In this document: in pieces, positions 332 through 33,678 of the stretch | Layout of the letters: every line of letters starts with the position of its first letter | How positions within the stretch are numbered: position 1 is the first letter of the stretch | Assembly: GCA_902527215.1 (NCBI GenBank) | Contig: CABZOF010000003.1 | Coordinates: 130,649-194,648 of the forward strand | Reading direction: 5' to 3' | Source of the DNA: an uncultured Pelagibacteraceae bacterium | GTDB lineage: Bacteria; Pseudomonadota; Alphaproteobacteria; Pelagibacterales; Pelagibacteraceae | DNA: 64,000 nt | Notes under the pieces: generated by a model | Seen by the model: the letters and a program-made list of their open reading frames with translations, nothing else | The model's database searches: none | Told to the model about the DNA's origin: nothing | Translations under genes and position numbers: made by a program

Positions 332-623
332 TATTTTTGATTATATAGGTAGTCTCACCTTCTTTTCCAAATAAAAACTTTTCTCTAATTAATATTTCTA
401 TGAAATCTAGATCAATATTTTCTGTTAAAAGTGAATTTTTGTGCTCTAAATCTTCTATTTTGCTATTTAGAGTAATTTGATCATTTTTTAGTTGCTCATA
501 TGTATCTTTCTTTTCCATGTAAGAAATGAGACCTCTATCACCATCTAATAAATTAAAGAAAAAATAAATAAATAGGAATGTGATGATGAGAATAAAATAG
601 TTCTTTTTAAATTTTACTAACAT
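315..623 (-). CDS. ftsB: Septum formation initiator FtsB/DivIC
   Basis: 102 aa, single N-terminal TM, G-D-R-G motif, coiled coil; canonical position after eno. Confidence 0.85.
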
Positions 624-1882
624 TAATCAATTTTATTCATTTTAGCCGATCTACCAAGATCTTCTTCAATACGGATTAGTTGGTTGTATTTTGCTATTCT
701 CTCTGATCTAGCTAGAGATCCTGTTTTGATTTGATTTGAATTGGTTCCTACTGCAAAATCAGCAATAAATGTATCTTCGGTATCACCAGATCTATGAGAG
801 ATGATTGTTTTAAAACCAATAAGTTGAGCAAATTTTATTACTTCTAACGTTTCGGTTACAGTTCCTATTTGGTTCAATTTTATTAAAATACTATTTGCGG
901 ATAAGTTTAGAAAGCCTATTTTTAATCTTTCAAGATTAGTTACAAAAAGATCATCACCTATTATTTGTATTTTATTTTTTGTTCCATTTACAAATTTTGA
1001 CCATGCCTTCCAATCATCTTCACCAAATGGGTCCTCAATTGATTTTATTTGATATTTTTTAATAAGTTGTAAATATTTTTTAATTGATTGCTCTACACTA
1101 ATGTAATTTTTAGAATGAATTGAATATTTGCCTTTTTTAATTAATTCATTTGCTGCAATATCTAAACAAATAGATATATCTTTACCATTTTTAAAACCTG
1201 ATTTTTTGATCGCTTGAACTATAAGCTTTAAAGCACTCTCATTATTGCTCATCATTGGTGCAAAACCACCTTCATCACCTACATTAATAGAGTGACCTGC
1301 TTTTTTTAATAATACTTTTAAATTGTTTACTACTAAAAAACACATTCTTACAGCTTCCTTAAATGATTTTGCTTTATCAGGTCTGATCATGAACTCTTGT
1401 ATTCTTAAACCATTATCAGCGTGCGCTCCTCCATTAATAATATTCATCAAAGGAAAAGGTAGTTTAAAATTATTCTTTACAATAAAATTTTTATATAAAG
1501 GTATTTTTTTAACTTTTGCTGATAATTTTTTAACAGCCATGGATACGGCTAATATTGTATTCGCACCTAGCTTTGTTTTTTGTTTTGTACCATCTAATTT
1601 TATGAGAATACTGTCTATTCTCTCTTGGTCATGAATATTTCGATTTTTTAATTTTTTTGAAATTAATTTATTAATAGTTGTGACTGGTATTAAAACACTT
1701 TTACCTAAGTATTTTTTATTACTCTTATCTCTTTTTTCATAAGCCTCAAAAGTTCCTGTTGAAGCGCCTGAAGGACAAATTGCTGACGCACTTAAATTAT
1801 TTGAAAATACTTCAGCCTCAATAGTGGGATTTCCTCTGCTATCATACACTTGTCTGGCAACGACTCTTTTGATTTTGCTCAT
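623..1882 (-). CDS. eno: Enolase
   Basis: DSRGNPT, PSGASTG, GDEGGFAP, GDDLFVTN, SHRSG, QIKTG motifs. Confidence 0.98.
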   Translation of the reverse strand: MSKIKRVVARQVYDSRGNPTIEAEVFSNNLSASAICPSGASTGTFEAYEKRDKSNKKYLGKSVLIPVTTINKLISKKLKNRNIHDQERIDSILIKLDGTKQKTKLGANTILAVSMAVKKLSAKVKKIPLYKNFIVKNNFKLPFPLMNIINGGAHADNGLRIQEFMIRPDKAKSFKEAVRMCFLVVNNLKVLLKKAGHSINVGDEGGFAPMMSNNESALKLIVQAIKKSGFKNGKDISICLDIAANELIKKGKYSIHSKNYISVEQSIKKYLQLIKKYQIKSIEDPFGEDDWKAWSKFVNGTKNKIQIIGDDLFVTNLERLKIGFLNLSANSILIKLNQIGTVTETLEVIKFAQLIGFKTIISHRSGDTEDTFIADFAVGTNSNQIKTGSLARSERIAKYNQLIRIEEDLGRSAKMNKID

Positions 1883-1885
1883 TAA

Positions 1886-2710
1886 TTACTTTTTAACTAA
1901 ATTATCAATTTCTACAATTTGATTAATTAGCTCGTCTAATTTGTCTAGAGGGACCATGTTTGGACCATCTGATGGAGCATTATCAGGATCCTGATGTGTT
2001 TCCAAAAAAATAGCCGCAACGCCTACTGCAACTGCTGCTCTCGACAAATACTCAACAAATTCTCTTTGACCATCACTTTTTTCACCTAGACCACCAGGTT
2101 GTTGAACTGAATGTGTTCCATCAAATACTACTGGATAACCATTTTTTGCCATGATGGGGATAGATCTCATATCTGAGACCAATGTATTATAACCAAAGCT
2201 AGCTCCTCTTTCGGTCACTAAAATATTTTCATTTCCACTATCTGAAATTTTTTTGGTTACATTCACCATATCCCACGGTGCTAGAAATTGACCCTTTTTC
2301 ACATTAATAATTTTATTGGTTTTAGCAGCAGCAATTAATAAATCTGTTTGCCTACAAAGGAATGCTGGTATTTGAAGAACATCTACGTGATTAGAAACTA
2401 CGGAACATTGTTCTTCATTATGTATATCGGTAAGAACGGGTACTCTAATATCTTTTTTGATTTTATCAAATACAGGCAAGGAGTTTTCTAAACCAGCTCC
2501 TCTTTTGCCTTTCAAGCTTGTTCTATTAGCCTTATCAAATGAAGTTTTATAAATAAATCCAATATTATACTTTGTCACTATTTCTTTAATTTTGCCTGCC
2601 ATGTCCAGAGCATGTTGCTCGGTTTCAAGTTGACAAGGTCCAGCTATTAAACAAATTTTATTTTTGTTTGAAATTTCTATACCGTTACAATTAACTATTT
2701 TATTTTCCAT
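1886..2710 (-). CDS. kdsA: KDO-8-phosphate synthase
   Basis: [36 protein letters not shown] motifs; pyrG-kdsA-eno order. Confidence 0.97.
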
Positions 2711-4322
2711 TAAAAGATTTTGCAGCTTTAATAAATGACGAGAATAAAGGATGAGGATTTAAAGGTCTAGATTTAAATTCTGGATGAAATTGGACTCCAA
2801 TAAACCATGGATGATTTTTAAGTTCAATAATTTCAGGTAATTGATTGTCAGGAGAAATTCCTGAAAACATCAAACCTTTTTTTTCAAATTTATGCATTAA
2901 ATTTATATTGACTTCATATCTATGTCTGTGTCTCTCCTTAATCATATTAGATTTATAGATATTTTTTATGGCAGAATTATTTCTTAGTTTTGCCTCATAT
3001 AGACCTAACCTCATTGTTCCTCCAAGGTTTTTGTCGGTTCCTTTTATAATTTTTCCATCTTTGTTCCATTCATCAATTAATCCTATTACGGGAAAACAAT
3101 TTTTATCTAGTTCACTAGAGCCAGCTTTTTTAATTTTTAATCTATTTCTTGCAAACTCAATCATTGCCATTTGCATTCCAAAACAAATACCTAGAAATGG
3201 TATTTTTTTTTCTCTGGCATACCTAATTGCCTCAATTTTTCCCTCTGTTCCTCTCTTACCAAATCCTCCGGGTATTAAAATTCCAGACACATTCTTCAAT
3301 CTAGATTTAATTTCTTTTGTTTTAAGCTTATCTGATTCTATTCTTACTAAATTAACTTTAACTTTATTTGAAATACCTCCATGCGTAAGTGCTTCATCAA
3401 GTGATTTATAAGCATCTTTTAAATTTACATATTTACCTATGATAGCAATATTTACTATTCTTTTTGTTTTTAAAACTATATTTGTAATTTTTTTCCAAGG
3501 TAGCAAGTTTGGTCTTTTTCTAGATTTTATTTTAAAGAATTTTAAAACCTGCTTATCTAATTTTTGATTAAAGAAACTTATTGGGGCTTCATAAATAGTT
3601 TTTACATCAACTGTTTCTATAACATTAGCAATGTCTACATTACAAAATAAGGATATTTTTCTTCTTTGATCTAAAGGAATAGACTGTTGAGATCTACAGA
3701 TCACAATATCGGGTTGAATCCCTATGCTTCTCAATTCTTTAACAGAATGTTGTGTTGGCTTTGTTTTAATTTCATCTGAAGATTTTAAAAATGGAACAAA
3801 TGTTAAATGAATAAATAATGATTTTGATCTGCCATTATCATTTGAAAACTGTCTTATAGCTTCTAAAAATGGTAAACTCTCAATATCACCAACTGTTCCT
3901 CCAATTTCACAAATTACAAAATCTTCATTTGTTATATCTTTTTTTATAAACTCTTTAATTCTATCTGTAACATGTGGAATTACTTGAACTGTTTTTCCGA
4001 GATAACCTCCCGTTCTCTCTTTTTTTATTATATCACTATAAATTCTACCTGTAGTAATGTTATCAGATTGTTTGGCTGAAATATTTGTGAATCTTTCATA
4101 ATGTCCTAAATCTAAATCAGTCTCAGCTCCATCGTCAGTTACAAAAACTTCACCATGTTGAAAAGGACTCATTGTTCCTGGATCTACATTTAAATATGGA
4201 TCCATTTTTCTTATTCTAACCTTATAGCCTTGTGATCTAAGCAAATATGCAAGAGATGCCGATGACAAACCTTTTCCTAGTGATGAAACCACGCCGCCAG
4301 TGACAAATATATATCGCGCCAT
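2700..4322 (-). CDS. pyrG: CTP synthase
   Basis: [47 protein letters not shown]. Confidence 0.99.
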
Positions 4323-4338
4323 GGAATTATGTTATAGC
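4323..4338 (-). promoter_or_regulatory. Putative pyrG -10 element (GCTATAAC) and start region ATAATTCC directly before the ATG
   Basis: Minus strand reads GGCTATAAC-ATAATTCC-ATG; fits the Caulobacter sigma70-type -10 consensus GCTANAWC; no SD present; -35 weak. Confidence 0.55.
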
Positions 4339-4362
4339 CAATGATTTATAAAAATAAAAGTA

Positions 4363-4665
4363 TTAATTATTATTTTCTGGTAATTTAGGAGCATCATCTG
4401 CATTTTCTTCTATTTTATCAATTACAGAAGTGTTTGAAGGAAGATCTCCTCGTGAAATAATAGTCAATCCTAGACTGCAAATTATGAATAATGTTGCAAC
4501 AATAGCTGTTGCTTTAGTCATAAAATTCCCAGCGGACCTTGAAAACATAAAGTTATCTTGCGATACTCCAATACCTAAGGCTCCACCTTCAGATTTTTGG
4601 AGCAAAACCAGCAATACTAGAATTGCGGCCAATATTATATTTATAATTAATAGTATGTTTTCCAC
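4363..4665 (-). CDS. secG: Preprotein translocase subunit SecG
   Basis: LVLLQKSEGGALG motif, two TMs, GTG start, tpiA-secG-pyrG synteny. Confidence 0.95.
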   Translation of the reverse strand: MENILLIINIILAAILVLLVLLQKSEGGALGIGVSQDNFMFSRSAGNFMTKATAIVATLFIICSLGLTIISRGDLPSNTSVIDKIEENADDAPKLPENNN

Positions 4666-4670
4666 GACGC

Positions 4671-5417
4671 CTAATTAATTGATTTTTTCATTATATCAAT
4701 AAATATTTTTTCGTTAGTTGATGCTCCACCAATCAAAAAACCGTCAATATTATCAATTCTCATTAAATTTTTTATATTTTTTGGGTTTACAGAGCCTCCA
4801 TATAAAATCTTAGATTTTGTAAATTTTTTTGAAATTTTTAAGGTGTTTCTTATAAATCGAATATTTTTTTTTAAATCATTTTCAGTAGGAATAATTCCTG
4901 TACCAATCGACCATACAGGTTCATAAGCAATTATAACTCTATTTAAATTCTTTAAATTTTTTAAACCTTCAAGTAACTGTTTTTTCAAAACATATTTTGT
5001 TTTATTTTTTCTTTTATCAATAAATTTTTCGCCTATGCATAAAATGACATTTAATTTTTCATTAAGTGCAGACTTAATCTTTAAATTAATTTTTTTATTA
5101 TCATTTTTCGCTCTTGTTTCTGAATGTCCAATTATAACAAACTTACCCCCTAAATCTTTAATCATCTTTGTGCTTATAGCCCCTGTAAAAGGTCCGTATT
5201 TTGGTTGAGTATGACAATCTTGAGCACCAATTTTAATATTTGATTTTTTTGTTTTATCTACAAAAGATTTGATCAATGTATAAGGTGGACAATAAATAAT
5301 ATTGGCTTTAAGTTTCTTTGTTTTTGAATAACTTATTACTTTATTTAATGAATTAACCGACTTAACTGACCCAAACATCTTCCAATTGGCAATGAAATAC
5401 ATATTATTATTTGTCAT
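4671..5417 (-). CDS. tpiA: Triosephosphate isomerase
   Basis: ANWKM, GHSE, AYEPVWSIGTG, LYGGSV, LIGGAS. Confidence 0.97.
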   Translation of the reverse strand: MTNNNMYFIANWKMFGSVKSVNSLNKVISYSKTKKLKANIIYCPPYTLIKSFVDKTKKSNIKIGAQDCHTQPKYGPFTGAISTKMIKDLGGKFVIIGHSETRAKNDNKKINLKIKSALNEKLNVILCIGEKFIDKRKNKTKYVLKKQLLEGLKNLKNLNRVIIAYEPVWSIGTGIIPTENDLKKNIRFIRNTLKISKKFTKSKILYGGSVNPKNIKNLMRIDNIDGFLIGGASTNEKIFIDIMKKSIN

Positions 5418-5478
5418 AAAGATTAATATAATTTATATGTTTATTTTTTTTTAGATCAATAAATAAAGACTATAGAAT

Positions 5479-6900
5479 ATGATAAGTAAATTAAGAGGTT
5501 TCTCAAATTCAAAATTAGCTGGGGTACTTGTCGGAATTATTATAATTCCATTTGTATTTTGGGGCATGGGTAGTGTTTTTAGCGGAGGTAATACTAACAA
5601 CGTTGCTAAGATTAATAACGAAGCAATCTCATCAAAAGATTTTTTAAATTTTATAAACGAGTCAAGACTTACAAATGATATTATAAAAGCAAACATAGAT
5701 AAAAATATTATTGAGCAGATACTATCAGAATTGGTATCTGAAAAATTAATTGAGATGGAAATTAAAGAATTAAATGTATCAATGTCAGAGGAAGCATTGG
5801 CAAATAAAATAAGATCTAATTCAATACTACTTGATGATAATAAGAAGTTTTCAAGAGTTAAGTATGAAAAATTTCTATTAGAAAATAACTTAAGTGCTTC
5901 AACATTTGAAAATTCATTAATGAAACAAGAGTTAAAAGAAAATTTATTTAATTATATTAGTGGAGGAATTAAGTCGCCTTATTTTTTAAAAAATAAAATA
6001 TATATCAATGAAAATAAAAAAATTGAGATCGAATTTTTAGATTTAGACTTAGTTCATGATAAAACTGCAACCAAATTAGAAGTTGAGGATTTCATTAAAA
6101 ATAATCAAGAAATTTTGAAAATTGATTTTATTGATCTTACTTATGCAAAAATTACTCCTAAAAATCTAATAGAAATAGATGAATTTAATGATGAATTTTT
6201 TAAAAAAATTGATGAAATAGAAAATAATATTTTAAATGGATCAAATATTAGAGAAATTAATGAAATTTATAATTTAAAACTAAATGAAATTGATAATTTT
6301 GTATTGAATGATGATTCAGATGAAATACTTCAGGAAATTTACTCAAAAAGAAACCAGGATAAAATACAACTAATAGATAAAAATGATTATTATCTAATTT
6401 TTGAAATATCAAATATTAACAAAAAAATTCCAAACAAAAATGATCCAAAATTTTTAGAAAACGTTAAAAATAATGTAATTTTAAAAAAGAAATTTGAATT
6501 TAATAAAAGTCTTTTTGAAAAAATTGACGAAAAGATATTTAATGATGATGAGTTTGTGAAATTATCAAAAGATAAAAATAATATTAAGACTACAACTATT
6601 AAAAACAGTAATGATTACAAAATTTTTGACACAGACTCATTAAAGCTTTTATACACATTGCCGAAAGAAAGTTTCTCATTAGTAACTGGTGAAACAAATA
6701 AAGTTTTTCTTACAAAAATTAAGAATATTTATTATTCAGATATGGAAAAAAATAATAATAATGTTGAAGAATATTCTACTAAGGCAGATAATGATATTAT
6801 TAATGATGTTTATACATCTTATGACCTATCTTTAAATTCAAAATACAAGGTAAAAATTTTCAATCAAACAATTGATAGAGTTAAAAATTATTTTAGATAA
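5479..6900 (+). CDS. ppiD: PpiD-like periplasmic chaperone (SurA N-terminal domain; no clear parvulin domain)
   Basis: N-terminal TM 'IIIPFVFWGMG', VAKIN motif, conserved position between tpiA and trpE. Confidence 0.75.
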   Translation: MISKLRGFSNSKLAGVLVGIIIIPFVFWGMGSVFSGGNTNNVAKINNEAISSKDFLNFINESRLTNDIIKANIDKNIIEQILSELVSEKLIEMEIKELNVSMSEEALANKIRSNSILLDDNKKFSRVKYEKFLLENNLSASTFENSLMKQELKENLFNYISGGIKSPYFLKNKIYINENKKIEIEFLDLDLVHDKTATKLEVEDFIKNNQEILKIDFIDLTYAKITPKNLIEIDEFNDEFFKKIDEIENNILNGSNIREINEIYNLKLNEIDNFVLNDDSDEILQEIYSKRNQDKIQLIDKNDYYLIFEISNINKKIPNKNDPKFLENVKNNVILKKKFEFNKSLFEKIDEKIFNDDEFVKLSKDKNNIKTTTIKNSNDYKIFDTDSLKLLYTLPKESFSLVTGETNKVFLTKIKNIYYSDMEKNNNNVEEYSTKADNDIINDVYTSYDLSLNSKYKVKIFNQTIDRVKNYFR

Positions 6901-31273: not shown

Positions 31274-32932
31274 TTAAATTCTTACCAAGTTTATATTTGT
31301 TAGTGGTTTTTTCCCAGTTTTTTCTTTTGAAAATTTACGACAAGTTATTTTAAGAGCATCTATGAGATTGTCTTGTTGTTTCGTGTTGTTTAATGAAAAT
31401 GTTTTAATAGTTCTTTCTATTTCTTCCTCCAATCCATAAATAAACTCATCATTCTCATATACTGGTAGACCTCTAAAAGTTACCAAAGGTTTGTTGTGAA
31501 TGTTTCCTTTTGGTGTAATCATAATTGTAGCTTCTAAAAATCCATTTGATGAAATATTTCTTCTTTCTTTTATTGATCTAGAATCCTCCTCTACTGGAAC
31601 ATTTCCATCTAAATAAACTCTTCCACTTGGTGCTTTGTCATAGACCTCTGGTTTTTCTCCAGGATACAACTTAACAATATCACCGTTCTCTACTTGAACT
31701 GGGTATTTAACCTGCATCTCTTTTGCAAATTCAATGTGCTCCATCATGTGTCTGTGTTCACCGTGAACAGGGATAACTGCTTTTGGCCTAATCCAATTAT
31801 ACATGTCTCTTAAGTCCTCACGGTTAGGATGACCGGAAACATGAATATATTCATTATCTTCAGATATAACTTCGATACCCTCTTTGACCAAATTGTTATG
31901 AAGCTTATATAATTTCTTCTCATTTCCAGGGATAATTTTTGAAGAAAAAATTACAGTATCGTTTCTCTCAATAAAAACATCTGGGTGAGTATATTTAACT
32001 ATTCTATTCATAGCTCCCATTGGTTCACCCTGACTTCCAGTGCACAAATAAACAATTTTTTCTCTAGATATATTTTTTGCATCTCTTGGATCTATTGGAT
32101 CAATAACATTCTTAAGATAACCACATTGTCTTGCTGCTTTAAATATTCTGTGCATCGATCTTCCAACTAGTGAAATATGTCTTCCTGTTTGTTCTGCACA
32201 ATAAAAAACAGTTTCCATTCTGGCTACATTAGATGCAAATGAAGTAACGATTATTCTTTTTTTTAATCTTTCAAAAACCTTAAGTAAATTTTTACGCACA
32301 TCAAGTTCAGACCCTGCTCTACCTGCACTAAATACATTTGTAGAGTCACAAATCATAGCTAATACACCTTCGTTGCCTATTTCCTTTAATCTTTCAGAGT
32401 TTATATTTCCACCTATCAAAGGATCTGGATCGCATTTCCAATCTCCGGTATGTAGTATATTTCCAGCTGGTGTTTGTATTTTAAGACCATTAGGTTCTAA
32501 TATTGAATGAGTAAGTGTAACAAACTCTATTTTAAAGGGATCTAGTTTAATTGTACTATTAAGTTCTACTATTTTTAAATAACTAGTTATATCAATTTTT
32601 TTTTCTTTAAATTTTTCAGTAATTAATACTGAGGTAAAAGGTGTAGCATAAATTTTACATTTTAATTTTGGCCATACATGAGCTATAGCTCCAATATGAT
32701 CTTCATGAGCATGTGTTAGGACTATGCCTAGCAAGTCATCTTTTTTATCTATTATAAATCCTGGATCTGGATATATGATATCAACGCCAGGTACTGTATC
32801 ATCTGCAAATGTAACACCAACGTCAACAATAATCCATTTTTGATTGTCTGGCTTACCATATGCAAATAGGTTCATATTCATCCCTATTTCACCAGATCCT
32901 CCTAGAGGACAAAATAATAATTCATCTTTCAT
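31274..32932 (-). CDS. rnj: Ribonuclease J
   Basis: PLGGSGEIGMN, THAHEDHIG, HTGDWK, GSQGEP, HVSGH. Confidence 0.96.
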   Translation of the reverse strand: MKDELLFCPLGGSGEIGMNMNLFAYGKPDNQKWIIVDVGVTFADDTVPGVDIIYPDPGFIIDKKDDLLGIVLTHAHEDHIGAIAHVWPKLKCKIYATPFTSVLITEKFKEKKIDITSYLKIVELNSTIKLDPFKIEFVTLTHSILEPNGLKIQTPAGNILHTGDWKCDPDPLIGGNINSERLKEIGNEGVLAMICDSTNVFSAGRAGSELDVRKNLLKVFERLKKRIIVTSFASNVARMETVFYCAEQTGRHISLVGRSMHRIFKAARQCGYLKNVIDPIDPRDAKNISREKIVYLCTGSQGEPMGAMNRIVKYTHPDVFIERNDTVIFSSKIIPGNEKKLYKLHNNLVKEGIEVISEDNEYIHVSGHPNREDLRDMYNWIRPKAVIPVHGEHRHMMEHIEFAKEMQVKYPVQVENGDIVKLYPGEKPEVYDKAPSGRVYLDGNVPVEEDSRSIKERRNISSNGFLEATIMITPKGNIHNKPLVTFRGLPVYENDEFIYGLEEEIERTIKTFSLNNTKQQDNLIDALKITCRKFSKEKTGKKPLTNINLVRI

Positions 32933-32937
32933 TTTTT

Positions 32938-33678
32938 TTAATTTATAGCTACTCTTAAGATACCTTTAATTGTTAAATTTTTATCAACCGTTTTAATACC
33001 CTTAATTGATGATTTAAATAAGTGTGCAAATCCACCTGTAAGTATAATTTTAAACTTCTTTCTAGTTTGTTTTAAAATAAGTTTAATTATATTTTCGATT
33101 AAACCAGCATAACCATGATAAAAACCAGCTCTTACAGCAGTTTTAGTGTTTTTGCCAATGACATTTGCTGTCTTTTCTAGCTTAATTTTAGGTATTAAAG
33201 AGGCTTTATCTATTAAATTTTTCAAGGAAAGTTCTACACCCGGCGCTAAAACACCACCAATATAATCTTTTTTAATAACAATATCAAAATTGGTAGCCGT
33301 TCCAAAATCAACTATAATATAATTAAACCTACTATCAATAACTGCAATCGCATTAGCCAAACGATCAGAACCAATTTGTTTTCTATTGACTTTTATATTA
33401 ATAAATTTTTTTAAATTACATGTTTTTAATTCAACACAGTTCAATTTAGTAATTTCTTTAATGGTTTTTTTTATTATTTTATAAGAGTTAGGGACAACTG
33501 AACTAAAGAGTACTTTTCTAAGTTTAGAATTATATTTTCTTAAAAATAATAATTTTTTATTGAGAGTTTTTTTATTTAAATTTTTCTTATGAATTTTAAT
33601 ATTTTTGATCAATTTTAAGTTATTATTAAATAAACAAATTTTAATCGCAGTATTTCCAATATCGCCAATTAAATACAT
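32938..33678 (-). CDS. coaX: Type III pantothenate kinase
   Basis: GDIGNT, IGSDRLAN, VDFGTATNFD, GGVLAPG, ILTGG. Confidence 0.95.
   Translation of the reverse strand: MYLIGDIGNTAIKICLFNNNLKLIKNIKIHKKNLNKKTLNKKLLFLRKYNSKLRKVLFSSVVPNSYKIIKKTIKEITKLNCVELKTCNLKKFINIKVNRKQIGSDRLANAIAVIDSRFNYIIVDFGTATNFDIVIKKDYIGGVLAPGVELSLKNLIDKASLIPKIKLEKTANVIGKNTKTAVRAGFYHGYAGLIENIIKLILKQTRKKFKIILTGGFAHLFKSSIKGIKTVDKNLTIKGILRVAIN

Follow-up and report, generated by a model that had tools for sequence, protein, structure and literature searches.

We analysed the start of pyrG, the gene for CTP synthase, in a 64,000-nucleotide genome fragment of an uncultured Pelagibacteraceae (SAR11) bacterium with 28.7% GC (GenBank contig CABZOF010000003.1; this whole stretch is called the window). 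The 40 nucleotides (nt) between secG and pyrG almost certainly hold a dedicated pyrG promoter with its start at the AUG or within 2 nt of it, as an earlier note made from the sequence alone had proposed, and the start codon is predicted to lie in a conserved hairpin. Positions are given in the window or relative to the A of the pyrG ATG (+1, with -1 directly before it). We hypothesize that pyrG is transcribed from an internal promoter made up of a -35 block rich in T, a spacer of 17 nt, a TATAAC/TAACAT -10 element, a discriminator rich in A and T, and the start region T-T-C-C-A, with initiation at one of the two C's (-2 or -1) or at the A of the ATG. The mRNA from this promoter would have no usable leader. 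The two C's would pair with G+33 and G+34 and, together with the pairings AUG:CGU and CGC:GCG, would make a hairpin of 8 base pairs (bp) that buries the start codon. Transcripts containing the C's, either C-initiated or read through from secG, would be translationally closed, and ATP-initiated transcripts would carry a free 5'-AUG and be translated as leaderless mRNA. Because a pyrimidine nucleoside triphosphate (NTP) has to be abundant to initiate transcription, the choice of start would be expected to track the CTP pool: high CTP would lead to CC-AUG transcripts and little CTP synthase, and low CTP to AUG transcripts and more CTP synthase. Such a scheme would bring the logic of enterobacterial pyrC/pyrD to pyrG and combine it with leaderless initiation.

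We give this full reading (promoter, hairpin and a start choice that follows CTP) a probability of roughly 0.45. The CTP-sensing start-site switch at pyrG, taken by itself, is put at slightly under even odds. It is a still more tentative suggestion that CTP synthase is under feedback across the Alphaproteobacteria, including SAR11, through C and A starts 2 nt apart and with neither a protein nor a ligand-binding RNA. Equally tentatively, the device may consist of two intergenic bases and five synonymous codons and may predate the split between Pelagibacterales, Rhodospirillales-like lineages and Hyphomicrobiales. If the switch works, it is a minimal metabolic feedback that couples NTP-sensitive start-site selection with leaderless translation, which have so far been studied separately, and it shows nucleotide homeostasis in a streamlined genome with few regulators, in a group that is among the most abundant marine bacteria. 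It also offers a concrete, testable reason for frozen rare codons at the 5' end of a gene in an AT-rich genome. Even if CTP sensing fails, a near-leaderless pyrG promoter at a fixed distance across Alphaproteobacteria stands, as does a selected start-codon hairpin that goes against the usual rule of unstructured leaderless starts.

The probable promoter in the secG-pyrG gap

Read on the minus strand, the gap (4362..4323) is TACTTTTATTTTTATAAATCATTGGCTATAACATAATTCC, then ATGGCGCGATAT. The earlier note had described this stretch accurately: GCTATAAC with its -10 is followed by A1 T2 A3 A4 T5 T6 C7 (4324) C8 (4323) and A9 (4322), the last being the A of the ATG, and no Shine-Dalgarno (SD)-like sequence (GGAG, GAGG or AGGA) is present in the 40 nt. 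Most genes of the window also have no SD (upstream regions of 63 open reading frames, ORFs), so that its absence at pyrG is unremarkable on its own. The start codon is secure because an in-frame TAA lies four codons upstream (4334-4332), the PyrG N-terminus is canonical, and the Pfam CTP_synth_N match begins at residue 3. As a single-sequence pattern, TATAA-N7-CCATG is not beyond chance, since the window has one match where 0.24 would be expected, and 20 of 100 shuffles have one or more. A generic promoter scan gave no excess of promoter-like sites, and the pyrG site was missed by it because the scan demands T at hexamer position 6. The pattern is nevertheless judged real, because conservation and not single-sequence odds is decisive.

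The upstream regions of 80 Pelagibacteraceae species genomes (PyrG identity 79-98%) align gap-free from the ATG. TATAA (-14..-10), T-7, A-6, C-2 and C-1 are invariant in all 80 distinct sequences, and the spacing between the -10 and the ATG is fixed. T-4 and T-3 are 99% conserved, and positions -9 and -5 vary freely. The -35 block is likewise conserved (C-38 94%, T-37 and T-36 100%, T-35 97%), with T's again from T-31, and the spacer columns -28..-16 are nearly random and of low information at a constant spacer length. Two conserved blocks flanking a spacer that is variable in sequence and fixed in length are the signature of a promoter, and a sigma-70-type promoter with its start within 2 nt of the pyrG AUG is therefore very likely. 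The first homologue search gave only near-identical SAR11 proteins, and distant relatives were reached by a degenerate DNA pattern for the N-terminus and then via a GC-rich match. The pattern, with codon 2 other than GCG, returned 82 metagenome contigs, about 50 of them SAR11-like (GC < 0.335) and from other subclades. These keep the TATAA (with one exception, TAGAC), the spacing, the CC and the ATG, and the offset of the -35 block is identical in all SAR11 clades. Apart from that exception, TATAA, CC and spacing hold across 106-118 distinct SAR11-like sequences. Furthermore, on a neighbour-joining tree of 118 distinct SAR11-like sequences built on +46..+640, parsimony counts no change at -2, -1 and +33, two at +30, and six each at +6 and +27. 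The unconstrained neighbours -9, -5, +15, +24, +36, +45 and +48 underwent 16-27 changes on the same tree.

The conservation of the CC and of its spacing from the -10, which the earlier note had set beforehand as a test of its proposal, holds far beyond SAR11. The GC-rich set comprised 14 sequences, i.e., two metagenome contigs and 12 alphaproteobacterial loci with 72-91% PyrG identity to the query from those contigs; the loci include Rhodospirillales-like metagenome-assembled genomes (MAGs), Tepidamorphus, a Rhodobiaceae MAG, Futiania, Coralliovum and Magnetospirillum. In the two contigs (59% GC) the hexamer of TGATAGGTT occupies -14..-9 and AAxTGCCC-ATG comes next; their predicted hairpin carries A6:U27 where the window has G6:C27. 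Across the 60 nt before the ATG, 9 of the 14 sequences contain TAnnnT, always at offset -14 and often with TGn before it; at the remaining loci the hexamer is TAGGTC (-14), TATTCA (-14) or TATTCG (-15). The hexamer at -14 corresponds in position to TATAAC of SAR11, and a promoter study of 49 species describes the -10 of Alphaproteobacteria as poorly conserved at its 3' end (PMC12641261). YCC stands directly before the ATG in 12 of the 14, and one locus has TC, where U-2:G34 would still pair. In two loci (L172 and L173, positions 1199-1236) the TATTCG lies one base further upstream, three C's precede the ATG, and codon 2 is CAA (Gln), so that C+4:G+29 closes the mismatch of the hairpin and gives a sixth contiguous outer pair. 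The gene order tpiA-secG-pyrG-kdsA is mostly kept in the distant Alphaproteobacteria, with eno right after kdsA in only 5 of 12; the exceptions are glyoxalase insertions in L169, L170 and L175 and the absence of kdsA in L174. The secG-pyrG gap is about 77-192 nt there, against 40 nt in SAR11. In a contig of 71% GC (ENA ERZ19489026 contig_2, L167:1-1200), a DDE transposase gene occupies the usual place of secG, and TAGGTC-N6-CC-ATG and the hairpin are intact before pyrG. This argues for an element that works independently of secG. On comparison of the sequences, the intergenic -10 and the CC are informative in all lineages.

Mapped transcripts bear on the promoter in one relative. In Methylorubrum extorquens DM4, differential RNA sequencing (terminator exonuclease, TEX; with and without 5' polyphosphatase; TSSAR) gave a primary transcription start site (TSS) at 5698401, which is 2 nt upstream of the ATG of pyrG (coding sequence 5696771..5698399, minus strand), with a positional uncertainty of 3 and adjacent starts merged (PMC9320726). 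The secG gene of DM4 has its own TSS (PMC9320726). No TSS signal was found in assembled metatranscriptome and metagenome contigs (Logan), in which depth profiles are confounded by strain collapse, and contig ends are explained by strain polymorphism, such as an end at 4326 beside an A/C site at 4327. One metatranscriptome contig (X24, record 9; 4263-4322) runs antisense to 4321/4322 and folds back to sense at 4291/4290. Its snap-back joint is exactly the predicted hairpin pair A1:U32, which is compatible with cDNA that primed itself on an RNA beginning at A+1 and closed by that pair; as a single low-depth case it carries little weight. A second X24 contig, also a single low-depth case, diverges into unrelated sequence at 4324 (C-2). 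Neither event recurred in seven other runs. There was no pyrG entry in the accessible parts of the supplementary TSS text for agrobacteria, Methylosinus, Zymomonas and S. meliloti.

The predicted hairpin over the start codon

RNAfold predicts an 8-bp hairpin with the outer pairs C-2:G34, C-1:G33, A1:U32, U2:G31 and G3:C30, followed by a G4/G29 mismatch and the inner pairs C5:G28, G6:C27 and C7:G26. RNAalifold on 82 distinct sequences independently gives the same eight pairs, with 97.7% of helix cells paired, and the helix stops exactly at C-2. The calculated minimum free energy rises from -13.9 kcal/mol for a transcript beginning at -2 to -11.3 kcal/mol at -1 and -8.1 kcal/mol at +1; in the ensemble, releasing the AUG costs 5.2, 2.65 and 0.6 kcal/mol, respectively. 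Over 94 SAR11-like sequences this cost is 5.3 ± 1.5, 3.0 ± 1.3 and 1.2 ± 0.7 kcal/mol. The earlier note had ascribed the poor translation of a 5'-CCAUG transcript to the two extra nucleotides alone; the hairpin closed by those C's would add to their effect. In Caulobacter reporters, each extra 5' nucleotide about halves leaderless translation, and structure at the start codon lowers it, with R2 = 0.84 (PMC8459731). If these rules transfer, a 2-nt leader together with about 4.6 kcal/mol of extra AUG sequestration would be expected to give a roughly tenfold or larger difference in translation. Natural leaderless mRNAs of Caulobacter are reported to have little structure at the start (PMC8459731). 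The predicted 5'-AUG form of SAR11 pyrG is like these mRNAs of Caulobacter crescentus in having no SD; it is unlike them in that pyrG keeps a stable predicted start-codon hairpin and has two pyrimidines at preferred start positions.

The codons that form the two arms are frozen. Codon variability was compared across the first 500 codons of the 80 genomes, at the 168 sites where the amino acid is conserved and its codon is four- or six-fold degenerate. The five lowest values belong to codon 2 (GCG in 80/80), codon 9 (GGC in 80/80), codon 11 (GTG in 80/80), codon 10 (GGC in 79, GGT in 1) and codon 3 (CGA in 77). Elsewhere in pyrG, GCG accounts for 3.5% of Ala, GGC for 10% of Gly, GTG for 6.5% of Val and CGA for 3.3% of Arg codons. 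When the region was recoded synonymously 3000 times with SAR11 codon usage, the mean folding energy was -6.7 ± 2.2 kcal/mol compared with -13.9 kcal/mol for the native sequence; only 8 of the 3000 recodings were as stable, and none hides the AUG as completely. Opposite G3, position +30 is only C or T and never A or G, though GGA is the commonest Gly codon. The +6/+27 pairs in the 82 sequences are G:C in 56, U:A in 8, U:G in 3 and A:U in 1, with 14 unpaired; the latter are mostly C/C, and a shifted register with C5:G29 and C6:G28 is predicted for them. Covariation is modest. The signal of selection rests on the frozen rare codons and the recoding control, and these suggest that the hairpin sequestering the AUG is probably under selection. 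Two further structural readings were rejected. An inner helix that joins +8..+11 to +18..+21 in the predicted fold of the window is not conserved (82.9% paired) and was dropped by RNAalifold, and a terminator or attenuator is contradicted by the only two or three U's that follow the hairpin and by the variable +36.

Possible start-site choice, known systems and competing explanations

The sequence read from E. coli MG1655 pyrC, TATCCT-TTGTG-T6-C7-C8-G9, matches the geometry that the earlier note had given, and the C7 transcript starts CCGGC...GCCGGAG. According to a review, a high CTP/GTP ratio leads to initiation with CTP at pyrC; a 5' hairpin, made possible by the two additional C's, then sequesters the ribosome-binding site and blocks translation (PMC6524683). 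The SAR11 arrangement is like that of pyrC/pyrD in E. coli and Salmonella, where the -10 is followed by N5-T6-C7-C8 and a purine at 9: in the window TATAAC is followed by ATAATT-C7-C8-A9, and in the GC-rich relatives TAnnnT by N5-Y-C-C-A, with the caveat that in SAR11 a second, overlapping -10 register (register B, TAACAT) renumbers the C's to 5-6. In both cases the two C's of the CTP-initiated transcript, which for pyrG is a would-be one, close a 5'-terminal hairpin over the initiation region; at pyrG this hairpin is computational and comparative. The parallel to pyrC is much closer because the conserved AUG-sequestering hairpin uses the two C's as closing pairs. The target also lies in the pyrimidine pathway, and a regulatory protein is not involved in pyrC/pyrD. 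By its sequence features, the pyrG arrangement is a candidate for a pyrC/pyrD-type start-site switch. It is unlike pyrC/pyrD in that the SAR11 purine is the A of the AUG itself, so that the open form would be leaderless, and the hairpin covers the start codon and not an SD. Its 3' arm lies inside the ORF and would be held by selection on synonymous sites. Moreover, the competing nucleotide would be ATP and not GTP, and the target of the proposed switching is pyrG in Alphaproteobacteria.

Other NTP-sensing systems were also compared with the SAR11 gap. In Bacillus subtilis and Lactococcus lactis, pyrG is controlled by CTP-sensitive reiterative transcription and attenuation, with a GGGC start, poly-G addition and a leader terminator. 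The gene is the same, and there too CTP is sensed at the transcript start by RNA polymerase and without a protein regulator; the SAR11 gap, however, has no GGG run, leader or terminator. A Bacillus-type attenuator was accordingly rejected, there being no GGGC, no leader and no terminator-like site in 2600-5800, a range in which the promoter/terminator scan covered the gap as well. The pyrBI, codBA and upp systems, which use reiterative transcription and start-site switching, depend on T-runs of at least three in the initially transcribed region, and SAR11 pyrG has only two T's, upstream of the starts. These UTP-sensitive E. coli systems are like the proposed one in sensing an NTP pool at initiation of pyrimidine genes (PMC6524683). 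An Rfam cmscan of 4150-4500 at E<=10 returned only chance-level snoRNA and sRNA matches far under the gathering scores, and hence no covariance-model match for a PyrR site or a riboswitch leader. In the literature searched, no account was found of an alphaproteobacterial pyrG that is leaderless or pyrC-like, and pyrG is absent from the text of Meyer 2009 on candidate RNAs of Pelagibacter.

Several points weigh against the proposed switch. Of 96 distinct SAR11-like upstream regions, 95 carry a strict TAnnnT at -12, where it overlaps TATAAN (-14..-9). Used as the -10, this register B places the A of the ATG at the canonical and optimal position 7 and the C's at 5-6. If it is the functional one, C-starts could be rarer than the earlier note assumed, and the element could be mostly a plain leaderless promoter. 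The offset between the two registers equals exactly the distance from C-2 to A+1, which may or may not be meaningful. We infer the TSS positions in SAR11, their CTP dependence and their translational consequences, and the presence of the CC and the -10 at DM4 pyrG is assumed. A 5'-RACE (rapid amplification of cDNA ends) map of Caulobacter assigns one TSS to secG and another to the interior of the CTP synthase gene, and none to the start of the latter (PMC4287350). Some assembled metatranscriptome contigs span the secG-pyrG gap, so that read-through (or DNA) exists. Magnetospirillum sp. 64-120 (L168:1100-1200) has AAGGGGCCT before the ATG, with an AAGGGG SD-type leader; it has no -10 at -14 and no start-codon hairpin, and is the only sampled alphaproteobacterium without the arrangement, a case of natural loss or replacement. 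As to the hairpin, its arms in GC-rich genomes are what codon bias leads one to expect, so it is independently informative in SAR11 only. The G6:C27 pair is unpaired in 14 of the 82 sequences and covariation is thin, and five of the eight pairs are invariant partly through coding constraint (ATG, Gly and Val codons).

The first alternative is a constitutive leaderless promoter that senses no nucleotide and starts essentially only at A (position 7, within C-A-T). The CC and the hairpin could then silence the SD-less AUG on secG read-through, set a fixed low level of translation, or protect the 5' end from decay. Register B and the gap-spanning contigs fit this alternative. Y-R-Y start triplets are generally favoured (49-species promoter study, PMC12641261), and tpiA and the RNase J gene in the window have a similar short-leader geometry without CC, so that near-leaderless promoters seem ordinary here. 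However, the hexamer at -14..-9 is the only -10 of the GC-rich relatives, and counted from it the A falls on the suboptimal position 9 and the two C's on 7-8 throughout these lineages, which would be odd for an A-start alone. The mapped TSS of M. extorquens is at -2 and not at A, the helix ends exactly at C-2, and the regulated gene makes CTP and has a start region equal to that of pyrC. We consider this alternative rather unlikely, and the CTP-following switch is preferred to it.

According to a second and improbable alternative, there is no promoter, and the conserved block acts in the RNA of a tpiA/secG-pyrG cotranscript as an AU-rich ribosome standby or S1 platform, with the start-codon hairpin tuning or coupling pyrG translation. 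The short, terminator-free gap, the gap-spanning RNA contigs, the Caulobacter map and the frequency of SD-independent initiation in this genome would all agree with it. It does not account for the conserved -35 and -10 blocks around a spacer of variable sequence and fixed length, for an A/T-rich TAnnnT at one fixed offset in genomes of 60-70% GC, often with a TGn extension, for the persistence of the element where a transposase replaces secG, or for the primary (5'-PPP) TSS at -2 in M. extorquens. Least probable of all is a DNA operator, in which the imperfect inverted repeat CCATGGCGC-N17-GCGGCGTGG would bind a repressor over the start and the frozen codons would be protein-DNA contacts: 7 of 9 positions are complementary at the DNA level, the repeat overlaps the transcription start and the arms are invariant, but the variants are RNA-compatible and not DNA-symmetric (only C to T at +30, giving G:U; U:G among the +6/+27 pairs; the U2:G31 wobble in all), no candidate regulator gene is linked, and the architecture is common to lineages with very different regulator repertoires.

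Locus layout and other promoter-like sites

The features of the locus are collected in Table 1. The start of kdsA overlaps the end of pyrG by 11 nt (2700-2710), and eno begins 3 nt past kdsA (1882-1886).

Table 1. Window coordinates of the genes and of the elements at the pyrG start
Feature	Coordinates	Strand	Remarks
tpiA	5417..4671	minus	
secG	4665..4363	minus	SecG Pfam match; stop codon TAA 4365-4363, then 40-nt gap
T-rich block CTTTTAT at the -35 position (-38..-32)	4354..4360	minus	17 nt upstream of the -10
GCTATAAC with -10 register A (TATAAC, 4336..4331, -14..-9)	4338..4331	minus	Positional homologue of the TAnnnT of GC-rich relatives
Overlapping -10 register B (TAACAT, -12..-7)	4329..4334	minus	Strict TAnnnT match in SAR11
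Invariant CC (-2, -1)	4323..4324	minus	Candidate CTP-initiated starts and predicted hairpin closing pairs C-2:G+34, C-1:G+33
pyrG start codon ATG	4322..4320	minus	Candidate ATP-initiated (leaderless) start at A4322; start element C-A-T of the Y-R-Y type
pyrG	2700..4322	minus	CTP synthase, 540 aa; kdsA then eno downstream
Predicted hairpin 5' arm CCAUG-G-CGC (-2..+7)	4316..4324	minus	Includes codons 2-3, GCG CGA
Predicted hairpin 3' arm GCG-G-CGUGG (+26..+34)	4289..4297	minus	Codons 9-12, GGC GGC GTG G
kdsA	2710..1886	minus	
eno	1882..623	minus	

Promoter-like sequences also occur at other genes of the window. Upstream of tpiA (5430-5459, minus strand; ATG at 5417) lies a textbook promoter conserved across about 57 distinct relatives, with TTGATC/TTGAAC, a 17-18 nt spacer and (C)TATAGATT/TATAAATT ending 12 nt before the ATG, which serves as an example of a SAR11 -35/-10 pair. 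Its predicted leader is only about 5 nt long and without SD; very short leaders are thus not confined to pyrG. Upstream of the RNase J gene (31274..32932), the minus strand at 32933-32948 reads CTATAAATT, then AAAAAAA, then the ATG. The distance from -10 to ATG is that of pyrG plus one base, with A's in place of TTCC, and the gene is a candidate for a plain leaderless mRNA. The motif CTATAnnnT is about 3.4-fold denser in the intergenic part, which makes up 2.7% of the window, than in coding sequence. On the plus strand, CTATAGAAT (5470-5481) directly abuts the ATG of a SurA_N/PpiD-like gene (5479..6900), whose Pfam SurA_N_3 match begins at residue 1; either the -10-like motif does not serve as promoter of the gene, or its transcript or translation start is unusual.

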